From an uncultured Gammaproteobacteria bacterium (GTDB lineage: Bacteria; Pseudomonadota; Gammaproteobacteria; UBA9214): a stretch of 64,000 bases of DNA. The position numbers and the translations under genes were made by a program. Under the pieces are notes generated by a model that saw only the letters and a list, made by a program, of their open reading frames with translations, searched no databases and was not told the DNA's origin. Of the stretch, positions 5,173 through 64,000 are shown in pieces. The stretch covers positions 80,219-144,218 of the forward strand of contig CAVOZZ010000012.1 of NCBI GenBank assembly GCA_963701505.1, written 5' to 3'. Each line of letters starts with the position of its first letter. The stretch's first letter is position 1.

Positions 5173-5210
5173 AAAAGGCCTGTGCCATGTATTTGCACCG
5201 GCCTTTTTTT
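5173..5210. terminator. Bidirectional rho-independent terminator between tRNA-Leu and purA
   Basis: AAAAGGCCTGTGC ... GCACCGGCCTTTT forms a hairpin with one mismatch. It has a T-run on the plus strand and TTTTCTC on the minus strand. It starts right after the purA stop codon. Confidence 0.6.
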
Positions 5211-6502
5211 ATTCAAACGGGTGCTTGAGCACAATCGTCTCGGCACGATCCGGTCCTGTGGAGACAATGGCGATCGGGGTTTCGCATAATTCTTCCACCT
5301 TGTTGAGGTAGGCCTTCGCGGCCGCCGGCAACTGCTCAAAGGTTTTTATCCCGTAGGTTGATTCCGACCAGCCCGGCATTTCAATGTATTCAGGTTCACA
5401 TTGCTCGATCAGGTCGGCCCCGGCCGGCGGGGTATCGACAAGCTCACCGTTGAGCCGGTAACTGACGGCAATTTTCAGGGTATCGAGTCCATCGAGCACA
5501 TCGAGCTTGGTAATACACATCCCGGTCACGCTGTTGATATCCAGTGAACGCCGCAAAGCCACCGTATCCAGCCACCCACAGCGGCGCTGCCGGCCGGTGG
5601 TGGCACCGAATTCGTGCCCCTTCTTGCCGAGGTGCGCACCAACCTCGTCAAACAGCTCGGTCGGAAACGGTCCGGCACCGACACGGGTGGTATAGGCCTT
5701 GACGATGCCCAGCACATAATCGATATGGCGCGGGCCGACACCACTGCCGCTGGCAGCACCACCGGCCGTGGTGGTGGACGAGGTCACGTAGGGATAGGTG
5801 CCATGATCGATATCCAGCAACGCGCCCTGCGCGCCTTCGAACATGATGTCCCTGCCCTCGCGTCGCAGGCGGTGCAACAGACCCGGAACGTCTGCCACCA
5901 TCGGGGCGATCTGCTCACCCTGGGCCAGCGCCTCGTCCAGTACCCGCTGGTAGTCGACGGTAGCGGTCCTGAAATAGTGCTGCAGTGCATGATTGTGATA
6001 CTCCATGACCTCACGCAGACGTTCGGTGAAGTGCGCCGGGTTCAGCAGTTCACCGAGTCGCAAACCGCGGCGCGAGCACCTTGTCTTCATAGGCCGGCCC
6101 GATACCACGCCCGGTGGTGCCGATGGCCTTTTTACCGAGTGCATGTTCGCGTGCCTGGTCGAGTGCAATATGATAGGGAAGGATCAGTGGACAGGACTCG
6201 CTGATCTTCAATCGTTCGCGCGCCGGTACACCGGCCTGATCCAGCATCTCGAGTTCCTCAAGCAGCGCCGAGGGTGACAGCACCACGCCGTTGCCAATCA
6301 GGCACAGGACATTGGCTCGCAATATGCCCGATGGAATCAGGTGCAATACCGTTTTCTGCCCGTCAATCACCAGCGTGTGGCCGGCATTATGGCCGCCCTG
6401 GAACCGCACTACGGCGGAGGCCCTGTCTGTCAGCAGGTCGACGACCTTGCCCTTGCCTTCGTCACCCCACTGGGTACCGATGACAACTACGTTTTTACCC
6501 AT
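5209..6502 (-). pseudogene. purA: Adenylosuccinate synthetase, frame-disrupted as given (1 shift near 6061-6079)
   Basis: The N-terminal fragment (6050-6502) reads [22 protein letters not shown]...GPAYEDKV. The C-terminal fragment (5209-6168) resumes with [10 protein letters not shown]...[16 protein letters not shown]. The two fragments overlap and together give a full-length PurA. Confidence 0.93.
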
Positions 6503-6593
6503 TTGTATACTCTCTTGTTTGTAAACTGAAATCTGATATCCATGCCGTTAGCAGTTGTCCTGGCGGCGAGACAGGCACTGATGTGAGGTTCAA

Positions 6594-7782
6594 TCAGCAC
6601 ACCGGCTTCACCAGCCACTGACCCTTCTCGTTGACCAGCACCCGGTCACAACCCATCTCGGCGGCAGCGCCTTCCTGACCGGGCAAGGCATGTACCACCC
6701 GCTCGCCTGACTGTCGCAAGGCCGTTACCGCGGACCAGCAGCTCGCCATCCTCACCGGCGGGGGCGAAGATCGAACCCCTGCTGTGCACAAAGGAACGCT
6801 GACTCAACTGCATCAGCTCTCGCAGATCGGTGCTGAACCCGGTTGCCGGCCGCGAACGCCCGAACACCTTGCCAATGGCGTCATAGCGTCCGCCCCGGGC
6901 AATCTCCTGGCCACAGCCGGGAACAAACACGGCGAACACCATGCCGGTCTGGTAGCGGTAACCGCGCAATTCCGCAAGGTCAAAGTTGAGTGTTTCGGTG
7001 CCTGCTCGTTGCTCAATCAGTGAGGCGATGGCACCGAGGTTATCCAGCGCCGCCAGTACTGACTCACTGGCACCGGCCAGTTGTTCACGTGCCCGCTGCA
7101 GCACGCTGCGATCACCGTTGAGATCCGCCAGTGCCGCAAGTCGCTGACGCTGGCCGGCATCCCCGACAAAGGCCTTGAGCATCTCTTCTATTTCGGGCAC
7201 GGCCTTGCGTTGCAGCGCCTCGAACAGTTCGTTTTCCTGCTGTGCTGAAAGCTCCGCGTCCCTGGCTAGCCCTCTGAAGATCCCCACGTGACCAAGGTCA
7301 ATATGGATATCGGAGATCGACAACAACTGCAGCGACTCCAGCAGCAGCTTGATGATCTCGACGTCACTTTCGACACCCGCGTGGCCGAACAACTCGGCAC
7401 CCACCTGTAACGGGCTCCGTGAACCGCCAAATCCGTCATTGCGCGTATGCAATACCGTACCCATGTAGCACAGCCGTGTCGGCTCGCTGCGTTGCAGCGG
7501 GTGTGCATCGATGCGTGCGGCCTGTGGCGTCATGTCGGCACGCAGCCCCATCATGCGCCCGGTGAGTTGATCGGTCACCTTGAAGGTCTGCAAATCCAGG
7601 TCGTTGCCGGTGCCGGTCAGTAACGATTCCAGGTACTCGATCAACGGTGGAATGATGAGGTCGTAACCCCAGCAGGAAAACAGGTCCAGCAATTCCCGCC
7701 GCGCACACTCCAGCCGCCATGCCGCCGGGGGCAGGACTTGATCAATGCCTTCCGGCAACAACCACTGGTCTTTGGTGCTCAT
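6594..7782 (-). pseudogene. hisZ: ATP phosphoribosyltransferase regulatory subunit HisZ, frame-disrupted near 6733
   Basis: The 378-aa ORF reads WLLPEGIDQVLPP...FKVTDQLTGRMMGLRADMTPQAARIDAH (a HisS-paralog fold). The conserved C-terminus AVTALRQSGERVVHALPGQ continues in ORF 6594-6791. The position between yjeT and purA matches Pseudomonas. Confidence 0.88.
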
Positions 7783-7820
7783 GTCAAATCAGTTCTTGTC
7801 GGTACAGAGATCATCTGCAG

Positions 7821-8015
7821 TTATCTTACTATTGTCAGCATTACCACGCCGATAATCATGCTGATGAGACCGACAATGCGCAGCGTCCTGTCGTCCAGTT
7901 GTGACACCGTCTCCAGCATCTGCCGCAGCGACTGCGGGTTCAGAAACGGCACCATGCCTTCGATCACCAGCAGCAGTGCAATGGCGGCCAGCAGATCAGT
8001 CCAGATAACGTCCAT
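7821..8015 (-). CDS. yjeT: DUF2065 (YjeT-like) small membrane protein
   Basis: An ORF of about 64 aa reads MDVIWTDLLAAIALLLVIEGMVPFLNPQSLRQM...VGLISMIIGVVMLTIV. It sits downstream of hflC, as in E. coli. Confidence 0.75.
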   Translation of the reverse strand: MDVIWTDLLAAIALLLVIEGMVPFLNPQSLRQMLETVSQLDDRTLRIVGLISMIIGVVMLTIVR

Positions 8016-8022
8016 CACTCAC

Positions 8023-62444: not shown

Positions 62445-62452
62445 ACAAACCT

Positions 62453-62520
62453 GCAGGAGCACGCGTCCCCGCCGCGATTGTTTTTTATCCACCAAATCGC
62501 GGCGGGGACGCCGCTCCTGC
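62453..62520. terminator. Long GC-rich hairpin between convergent rhodanese and orn genes
   Basis: GCAGGAGCACGCGTCCCCGCCGCGATT - 15-nt loop - AATCGCGGCGGGGACGCCGCTCCTGC forms a stem of about 26 bp with one bulge. Confidence 0.55.
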
Positions 62521-62527
62521 AATTCGA

Positions 62528-63076
62528 TTAGTATTTAAAAAAACTCTCCCGGTAATAGCGCAATTCACGAATCGAATCACGGGTATCATCCAGCGCCAGG
62601 TGCGTACCGCCTTTCCTGAAGCCACTCAGCAGATTCGGTGGCGCCCAGCGCATCATCAACTCCTTGATGGTGCTGACATCCAGGTTTCTGTAATGAAAAA
62701 ACGCCTCCAGCTTTGGCATGCAGCGCGCCATAAAGCGACGGTCCTGGCAGATACTGTTGCCACACATCGGTGAGGCACCCGCCGGGACATGTTCAGCCAG
62801 AAATTCGATTGTCTGGCGCTCTGCCTCGGCCTCATCCAGGTTGCTGTTGCGCACCCGTTCGACCAGGCCGGACTGACCATGTTGCCGGGTATTCCATTCG
62901 TCCATGGCGTTGAGCACTTCGCCGGGCTGATGGATGGCCAGCACCGGTCCTTCTGCCAGAATATTCAGTTGCGCATCGGTCACGATGGTGGCAATTTCTA
63001 TAATCCTGTCCGTGGTGGTGTCCAGTCCGGTCATTTCCAGGTCGATCCAGATCAGGTTGTTGGCATCTTGCGTCAT
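62528..63076 (-). CDS. orn: Oligoribonuclease
   Basis: The sequence is [19 protein letters not shown]...[10 protein letters not shown] (DEDDh exonuclease motifs). The ORF track extends to 63088. Confidence 0.94.
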
Positions 63077-63168
63077 GTAGCACATCATCCATTCAAAGAT
63101 TAAGGTTGAGTCGCATTGTAGCAGAGGCTAATCTGCCAGATGCCACTACACGAGACCATGTTATCGAC

Positions 63169-64000
63169 ATGAATACATTCACTTATTTATTTCTGCTTGC
63201 CCTCACCGGTTCACTGGTCGTGCGTTTCTGGCTGGCCGCACGTCAGTATGGCCCATGTCAGCAAACACCGCGACACCGTCCCCGCGTCGTTTGCCGGCCG
63301 CATACCGCTTGAAGACCACCACAAGGCGGCGGACTACACCCTGACAAACACCCGCATTGGCATGATCGCGCTGATCTACGACAGCCTGCTGCTGCTGGGC
63401 TGGACACTTGGCGGCGGTCTGGAGTGGCTGGACAACAGCTGGCGCGGCGCTGGCCTGCACCCGGTCATCACCGGCACTGCCGTGATGTTCAGCGCCCTGG
63501 TGATTATGACGCTGCTGGACCTGCCATTTTCCCTGTACCACACCTTTGTCGTTGAAGAACGCTTCGGTTTCAACCGTTCCACGCCCGGCGTGTTCCTTGC
63601 TGACCTGCTGAAAAACGCGCTGTTGCTGGTCGTCATCGGCGGACCGTTAATCGCACTGGCCTTGTGGATCATGGAGGCATCGGGTGGTCTGTGGTGGCTG
63701 TACCTGTGGGGCGTCTGGATGGTATTCACGCTGGTGATGTTCTGGGCCTACCCGTCGGTTATTGCTCCGCTGTTCAATAAATTCTCGCCGCTGGACAATG
63801 AGGCACTGAAGCAGCGCATCCAGGCGCTGATGGATAAATGCGGCTTCCGCAGCAAGGGCATCTTTGTCATGGATGGTTCGAAACGCTCCGGCCATGGCAA
63901 CGCCTACTTCACCGGCTTCGGCAGCAACAAGCGCATCGTGTTCTTTGATACCCTGCTGGAATCCCTGAACCCGACCGAGATCGAGGCGGTGCTGGCACAC
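63169..64000 (+). pseudogene. M48-family (Ste24/HtpX-like) zinc metallopeptidase, frame-disrupted near 63245, 3' end beyond the window
   Basis: MNTFTYLFLLALTGSLVVRFWLAARQ is followed by a shift to VSKHRDTVPASFAGRIPLEDHHKAADYT... Multi-TM segments follow (...FNKFSPL...GNAYFTGFG.NKRIVFFDTLL). The window ends at AVLAH, just before the expected HEXXH motif. Confidence 0.8.

Follow-up and report, generated by a model that had tools for sequence, protein, structure and literature searches.

Clustered frame breaks in housekeeping genes of a sediment gammaproteobacterial genome are very probably consensus errors of its assembly

The frame breaks that interrupt housekeeping genes throughout this DNA are very probably consensus errors of a metagenome-assembled genome (MAG) assembled, at least in part, from error-prone long reads; almost certainly, the genes are intact in the living population and the breaks are not real gene decay. 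In the whole stretch analysed here (the window, 64,000 nt), window-anchored blastn against two to seven same-genus genomes (G010, G003, G015, G013, G014, G005 and three further MAGs; the window diverges from G010 by 12%) revealed 71 window-private indels with a length that is not a multiple of three, and 59 of them were genic after 12 probably intergenic ones had been taken out. At most sites every relative covering the site agreed against the window, and all 59 genic indels were absent from the relatives. The original prediction of frame changes in about 24 housekeeping genes was therefore borne out, with counts that match almost gene for gene. NCBIfam matches of window fragments or of intact orthologues in G010 confirmed the gene names; lpoA was the sole gene without an NCBIfam match and is hence called an LpoA-like ORF. 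The genic indels fall mainly in the following patches.

Patch 1, 6076..10373, minus strand: 12 genic indels, 11 of them extra bases
purA: 1 indel, 6076
hisZ: 1 indel, 6730
hflC: 2 indels, 8428 and 8506
hflC/hflK junction: 1-base deletion, 8932, treated as intergenic
hflK: about 6 and at least 6 indels, 9279, 9641, 9929, 9952, 9986 and 10041
Just upstream of hflK: indel at 10113, outside the hflK count
hflX: 1 indel, 10366
Patch 2, 16731..17285, minus strand: 4 indels
tsaE: 3 indels, 16734 (2-base event), 16865 and 17070
nnr, 3' end: 1 indel, 17284
Patch 3, 22597..24338, plus strand: 10 indels
LpoA-like ORF, end: compensating pair, 22597 and 22654
yraN: 1 indel, 23029
diaA/gmhA-like gene: 3 indels, 23234, 23397 and 23683
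dolP: 4 indels, 23989, 24105, 24138 and 24335
Patch 4, 26113..27577, both strands
trhO, 3' end, plus strand: 1 indel, 26113
corA, minus strand: at least 6 frame changes
Patch 5, 29375..38304, minus strand: 22 indels
bamB: 1 indel, 29375
hisS: 3 indels, 31138, 31266 and 31576
rodZ region: 1-3 indels, 32352, 32418 and 32528
pilW: at least 2 indels
rlmN: 2 indels, 33924 and 34299
Succinate/malate-CoA ligase alpha subunit: 2 indels, 35650 and 36373
Succinate/malate-CoA ligase beta subunit: compensating pair, 37004 and 37120
CitE/malyl-CoA-lyase-like gene: pair of indels, 38101 and 38302
Patch 6, 60835..63248, plus strand
glcF: 4 indels, 60835, 61247, 61346 and 61355
Rhodanese/sulfurtransferase: 2 indels, 61709 and 61998
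M48 peptidase: 2 indels, 63163 and 63246

These disrupted stretches are 0.5-9 kb long, and stray bases occur in them about once per 400 nt, most often as one inserted base that is not part of a homopolymer. Several indels are nearby compensating pairs that scramble the 20-60 codons between them. When the frames were compared with the G010 orthologues, the fragments of the broken genes still read as well-conserved protein. Between the patches lie clean stretches.

1..6075: rnr and others; matched without indels by contigs of all four runs at 99% identity or more; relatives aligned over 3.6-6.1 kb only
10374..16730, minus strand: most of hflX, hfq, miaA, mutL and amiC (the last three intact); matched without indels, from 10.7 kb on, by contigs at 99% identity or more; at 13.0-15.3 kb, where no relative aligned, freedom from indels is read from public contigs alone
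38305..60834 (22.5 kb): no genic frame change; glcD and glcE intact directly upstream of broken glcF

The clustering and the 22-kb stretch free of breaks had also been foreseen, and within 38.3-60.8 kb the only private event is an intergenic indel at 57787. Contigs of runs X25, X8, X27 and X28 tile 38305..60834 at 99.5-100% identity with no gaps, and G010 is syntenic over both of its borders. At 17285-22596 the private frame-changing indels are intergenic only.

As comparison sequence we used Logan contigs of public short-read-like runs, in which the organism has a depth of only about 3-9x. Among the contigs listed, at about 55 sites contigs 93-99.9% identical to the window lacked the extra base or carried the missing one; they were drawn from eight public runs of at least four studies and represent either the same population or a close relative of it. 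Every listed contig crossing a site had the unbroken version, so the lesions were not seen in the natural population as sampled by Logan contigs, which drop rare variants and could let a minority genotype escape. Contigs at least 99% identical to the window contradicted it at 6077, 6738, 16731, 16863, 17279 and 63248.

In patch 1, public contigs lacked the extra base at 6077, 6738, 7815, 8427, 8508, 9641 and 10364, and no public contig reached 99% identity over 8.7-10.7 kb. A 2,910-nt X25 contig lacked the window bases of patch 2 at 16731 (2 bases), 16863 and 17279, and 21 of its 23 substitutions against the window fell within 16519-17753. Contigs of X8, X27, X28 and X1 either lacked a base of patch 3 or carried an additional one at 22663, 23029, 23234, 23397 and 23684 as well as at 23999, 24107, 24138 and 24338. 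Those spanning corA in patch 4 showed 6-11 gaps against the window, and base 26113 was missing from contigs in all four runs. For patch 5, to which nearly no public contig is at least 99% identical, twelve sites were contradicted by contigs from four unrelated runs and more by X8; the best public contigs over 29-38 kb were only about 96% identical, with a depth two- to threefold that of the exact-match population, and part of the comparison in this region is with a sister strain. Finally, contigs lacked the window bases of patch 6 at 60841, 61254 (2 bases), 61346, 61376, 62001, 62027, 63168 and 63248.

On the clean stretches, short-read contigs of four public sediment runs formed a tiling of 99.5-100% identity; the patches had next to none. 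When support was defined as a summed depth of 3 for contigs of at least 99% identity in each 667-nt bin, 47 of the 59 indels lay in the 29 unsupported bins and the other 12 in the 61 bins with support (Fisher p about 1e-8; Spearman rho -0.53), a test that is partly circular because a patch that is divergent for any reason falls below the identity threshold.

The private frame-changing set comprised 57 insertions versus 13 deletions, a bias of about 4:1. Placement in homopolymers, the classical nanopore signature, was not the pattern seen: as expected from the few sites inspected in the original prediction, 33 of the 41 single extra bases with an assignable position lay outside any homopolymer (run length 1; background 56%). 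This counts against the signature of that platform but leaves the artefact reading itself untouched, and homopolymer slippage of either the biological or the nanopore type was rejected on it. A mutator background was also rejected, as mutL is intact. Protein alignments across the window genes contained no true nonsense codon, since each alignment stop sits either between two nearby compensating indels, where the frame is wrong, or ahead of the real start, and no IS insertion was found in the broken genes. Substitution errors in the patches were considered as well; private substitutions at sites invariant among the relatives amounted to 0-2%, the same as or below the clean stretches, and thus the patches are not of raw-read quality. 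The absence of in-frame nonsense and of obvious missense decay noted from the sequence alone therefore held, with no excess of private substitutions at constrained sites.

The disrupted stretches are 0.4-5% off the short-read population, and this divergence lies at sites that are variable among the relatives, which suggests an unpolished or mixed-strain long-read consensus. In the course of events proposed here, correction of a long-read or hybrid assembly reached only those stretches to which accurate reads from the same strain could be mapped well; elsewhere, low coverage or a divergent strain from the same community would have blocked it, and the raw or mixed-strain consensus would have kept its indels. 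The platform and the pipeline are only guessed, because insertions outside homopolymers are not classical for nanopore reads. Assembly indels had been favoured from the outset, and the contigs, the indel spectrum and the state of hisS all agree with an artefact, but the low-quality read ends then proposed as its source are unlikely, as the patches differ at naturally variable sites.

A variant of the artefact, possible but on balance doubtful, is that the contig is a chimera joining two co-occurring strains of the same genus, with indels only in the stretches of the poorly covered strain. X25 covers 38.85-48 kb at 99.8-100%, but over 30-38.8 kb it has next to nothing that reaches 90% identity, and X8 contigs have a depth of about 10 at 96% identity on the patches versus about 4 at 100% on the clean stretch. 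In bamB, 15 of the 20 substitutions against the contigs are at third codon positions, indicating real divergence, and the unraised private substitutions at conserved sites fit such a junction too. However, no border interrupts the natural gene order: synteny with G010 holds over 18.4-42.4 kb and 56.3-64 kb, and one border falls inside the glcDEF operon. Moreover, contigs at the exact-match depth (3-6x) are 97-99.6% identical to patches 1, 2 and 6 and differ mainly by indels, so those patches represent the same strain with errors. A chimera of unrelated genomes joined at 38.7 kb, where X25 matches the right side only, was rejected on the G010 synteny and on the continuity of the glcDEF operon across the 60.8-kb border.

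Consensus errors also have to be weighed against genuine, very recent mass pseudogenisation, for example in a newly host-restricted or dying lineage, which we consider highly improbable. The deposited sequence does contain the breaks, conserved fragments are the expected look of very young pseudogenes, and a rare genotype could be missed by Logan contigs. However, purA, hflX, rlmN, tsaE and bamB are broken within 60 kb together with hisS, a combination that is not compatible with life. As had been pointed out, hisS is an essential single-copy gene: it has a single locus in the genome, the sole other match being hisZ at 25% identity, and yet it carries three frameshifts, so that essential genes are neither spared nor backed up as genuine pseudogenisation would require. 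Nor is there the mixed lesion spectrum with deletion bias of genuine pseudogenes, as the 59 genic frameshifts are accompanied by no nonsense mutation. Mutation in bacteria tends towards deletions and towards slippage in runs, whereas here insertions prevail and 80% of the placed ones are non-homopolymeric. The sharp patch borders coincide with the loss of exact short-read support, glcF is hit four times while glcD and glcE of the same operon are intact, and unbroken versions exist in the population of all eight public runs. Massive recent pseudogenisation, raised originally as the alternative, thus finds no support.

There is likewise only a slight chance that a rare sediment genotype, such as relic DNA or a non-viable or hypermutating lineage, really carries the extra bases; if so, the patches of divergence and frameshifts would mark tracts of DNA that had recently been imported or damaged and that Logan contigs, which drop rare variants, do not show. 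Biological recoding, in which real frameshifts are corrected by programmed frameshifting or RNA editing, has a negligible probability: it has the conserved fragments in its favour and nothing more, and against it, no slippery motif or homopolymer is common to the sites, which occur only in patches where read support is poor and include the codon-scrambling compensating pairs, and the indels are absent from all relatives and population contigs.

The consensus errors probably extend beyond the window. The genome consists of 12 contigs (2.55 Mb, 83% marker completeness), and 20-39% of its 4-kb bins resemble the patches by the density of coding fragments judged from codon usage, which is a proxy only. 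The share of each bin in ORFs of at least 200 codons was tried as a genome-wide detector and was too insensitive because of long shadow ORFs in this GC-rich genome. Frame-breaking consensus errors probably affect about a fifth to two-fifths of this MAG, which serves GTDB as a species representative. Inside the patches, which can be recognised by missing exact short-read support, gene calls, pseudogene counts, completeness and observations of "split genes" or "fusions" are unreliable, and functional inference should wait for frame-aware correction or re-polishing. The frame breaks have no biological significance or novelty; their value is as a data-quality warning.

Among known systems, newly host-restricted bacteria such as Sodalis and Mycobacterium leprae resemble the window in having many interrupted housekeeping genes with recognisable fragments. 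Their pseudogenes show nonsense mutations, deletions, IS insertions and frameshifts side by side, with a deletion bias, and such reductive genomes spare essential single-copy genes like hisS. Unlike the breaks in the window, these pseudogenes are not confined to blocks without read support. Long-read assemblies (nanopore or PacBio CLR) are closer: indel-induced frameshifts are on record as a weakness of long-read MAGs (PMC9262707; proovframe, bioRxiv 10.1101/2021.08.23.457338), and the window shares with them single-base indels that break conserved genes, a highly contiguous MAG with depressed marker completeness, errors that vanish where accurate reads exist and no decay by substitution or nonsense mutation. 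It differs from classical nanopore assemblies, marked by homopolymer deletions, in that about 80% of its indels are insertions and about 80% of those are non-homopolymeric, and its errors are strongly patchy, in 0.5-9 kb blocks, with no even spread. Incompletely polished or strain-collapsed hybrid assemblies, a likeness drawn from the pattern and not from a documented pipeline history, share with the window the alternation of short-read-identical stretches with divergent, indel-rich ones, together with low short-read depth and related strains in the same samples.

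The genome to which the window belongs (2.55 Mb in 12 contigs, GC 55-58%, estimated to be 83% complete and 2% contaminated) has uncultured sediment Gammaproteobacteria MAGs as its nearest relatives. The closest genome compared, G010, is 85-89% identical to the window in DNA and is syntenic with it at 3.7-13.0, 18.4-42.4 and 56.3-64.0 kb. Nine same-genus genomes were aligned with the window, any single site being covered by 2-7 of them. Indels were retained if their length was not a multiple of three and the covering relatives agreed with each other against the window. This gave 71 private frame-changing events, 59 of which were left once 12 in probably intergenic DNA were dropped. 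The frame breaks cluster in patches whose borders agree closely with those drawn in the original prediction:

6076-10373, patch 1 (purA to hflX)
16731-17285, patch 2
22597-24338, patch 3
26113-27577, patch 4
29375-38304, patch 5
60835-63248, patch 6 (glcF, rhodanese and M48 peptidase)

The predicted stretch of about 22 kb free of frame changes was also recovered, as no genic event was found at 38.3-60.8 kb in the alignment to same-genus genomes. The frame jumps were the same at the protein level, where fragments were chained against intact G010 orthologues: hisS, the only copy in the genome as had been assumed, passes through frames -3/-1/-2/-3 and rlmN through -1/-2/-3, hflC, glcF and diaA use three frames each, and hflK is in at least 4 pieces. 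corA has at least 6 frame changes. Private indels and protein chaining together gave per-gene counts close to those predicted for the housekeeping genes. The gene names are backed by NCBIfam through intact orthologues or fragments; lpoA had no NCBIfam match.

The damage consists of indels only, as seen when indels and substitutions were tabulated against relatives, a check proposed with the original prediction. Events of +1 (50) and +2 (7) outnumbered those of -1 (12), -2 (one) and -4 (one), the last two both intergenic, with 57 insertions vs 13 deletions. Among the 41 single extra bases placeable on the G010 alignment, 33 had no adjoining identical base (background, 56% of window positions), in keeping with the claim that the sites inspected lie outside long homopolymers. 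Stops within the protein alignments were all either upstream of the true start or in misframed intervals flanked by close compensating indels, and there are therefore zero genuine nonsense mutations. In the patches, window-private substitutions at invariant sites (unchanged in at least 4 relatives) amounted to 0-2% in each 500 nt, not above clean DNA, and the reported lack of in-frame nonsense codons and of obvious missense decay both stand. mutL is intact.

The organism is present in public sediment and marine metagenomes. Sampled 31-mers from the clean 42-50 kb were found at 55-74% in the best runs, vs at most 28% in any run for the disrupted 29-33 kb. When assembled Logan contigs were placed on the window at ≥99% identity, those of four runs (X25, X8, X27 and X28; depth 3-9) tiled 0.7-6.7, 10.7-22.7, 24.7-26.0, 28.0-28.7, 39.2-60.7 and 62.7-64 kb, as a rule gap-free and with 0-4 differences each; 8.7-10.7, 22.7-24.7, 26-28, 28.7-39 and 60.7-62.7 kb were almost bare. 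Of 90 bins of 667 nt, the 29 without such support held 47 of the 59 indels (Fisher p ~1e-8, Spearman rho -0.53), a test with some circularity, since a patch that diverges for whatever reason will fall below the 99% threshold.

Comparison of contigs at the indel sites is free of that circularity. Among the contigs listed, those from the window's own population or a closely related one contradicted the window at every indel site crossed. The extra base was missing in ≥99% identical contigs at 6077, 6738, 16731 (two bases), 16863, 17279 and 63248, and in 93-99% contigs at 7815, 8427, 8508, 9641, 10364, 17285, 22663, 23029, 23234, 23999, 24107, 24138, 24338, 26113, 60841, 61254 (two bases), 61346, 61376, 62001, 62027, 63168; bases absent from the window were present in 93-99% contigs at 23397 and 23684. 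Within 29-39 kb, X1, X3, X4 and X9, four runs that come from at least three studies, were concordant against the window at the 12 sites listed (30983, 30998, 32351, 32418, 32526, 33258, 33698, 33926, 34301, 35649, 36376 and 37073). Contigs crossing corA had 6-11 gaps each, and those spanning the three hisS sites, which are outside these 12, had 4-5 gaps, in accord with the other sites.

It is in the patches, too, that substitutions set the window apart from the exact-match population. One X25 contig of 2,910 nt had 2 differences in 14941-16500; in 16519-17753 it had 21, together with three indel events that account for 4 gap letters. Patches 1 and 6 were 96.5-99.6% identical to contigs at the organism's own depth, and at 29-38 kb the best contigs were ~96% identical and deeper. 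In bamB, 15 of 20 listed differences fell at third codon positions (manual count). As conserved sites show no excess of private changes, the substitutions represent natural strain variation and not noise. At 29000-39000, X1, X3, X4 and X9, which are metagenomes of sediment, marine-sediment, marine and aquatic origin dated 2012-2023 and come from at least three studies, had a common allele at most of the listed positions where they differ from the window. Across these core genes the sister population thus seems to be very uniform, and it seems to have a wide geographic range.

Other features were seen in the window. An 84-nt GC-rich palindromic element, REP- or MITE-like (62444-62527; arms TGCAGGAGC.CG.GTCCCCGCCGCGATT and AATCGCGGCGGGGACGCCGCTCCTGCA), separates the rhodanese gene from the next gene. 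The alignments of four relatives (G015, G003, G005 and G013) stop exactly at its ends, G015 has ~52 matches to it and G013 ~20, and one X8 population is without it, 62443 being joined to 62528. Upstream of the LpoA-like gene, intergenic 20770-20850 carries inverted CACGGAA/TTCCGTG heptamers (20776; 20821-20846) adjoining T7 runs. Between trhO and corA, G010 has a gene for a 583-aa multi-pass membrane protein (L009:8046-9797) that the window is without, and window 26277-26592 is replaced by 78 other letters in X8 and X1 populations, so this spacer is variable. Two metabolic clusters share one neighbourhood (35597-38638 and 57815-61609), one with succinate/malate-CoA ligase alpha and beta subunits and a CitE/malyl-CoA-lyase-like gene, the other with glcDEF (glycolate oxidase); the pair is suggestive of a malyl-CoA route for glycolate/glyoxylate assimilation.

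Genome-wide, we used as a proxy the number of coding fragments in each 4-kb bin, derived from codon usage and calibrated on the window (clean bins ≤5 fragments, five mostly-patch bins ≥7, three mixed bins 4-6). Over all contigs (n = 632 bins), 20% of bins were patch-like at ≥8 fragments and 39% at ≥6, and such bins were arranged in runs along contigs.

The frame breaks are almost certainly an assembly artefact and hold no biological novelty; contigs without the indels, the indel-only spectrum and the patchy support all favour sequencing or assembly indels, the reading originally preferred. Their source is most likely a consensus corrected in part: a long-read or hybrid assembly would have reached short-read accuracy only where dominant-strain reads mapped well, and other stretches may have been left as raw or strain-mixed consensus, with indels retained. 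The errors in the window, mostly insertions and mostly outside homopolymers, do not follow the classical nanopore signature (PMC9262707). A pure chimera of two co-occurring same-genus strains is a variant of this partly corrected consensus. A join of unrelated genomes is excluded by natural synteny across every border, including that within the glcDEF operon, where intact glcD and glcE adjoin glcF with four events.

Massive recent pseudogenisation of the lineage, the original alternative, is very improbable. It would require hisS, purA, hflX, tsaE, rlmN and bamB, essential genes among them, to be inactivated all at once, 59 frameshifts to arise with zero nonsense codons, and an insertion bias outside repeats, the opposite of the bacterial bias toward deletions and slippage. 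It would also need to end exactly where exact short-read support resumes, and its lesions are missing from the population in every public run compared. Programmed recoding has no support, as no motif is common to the sites and tens of codons are scrambled between the members of compensating pairs.
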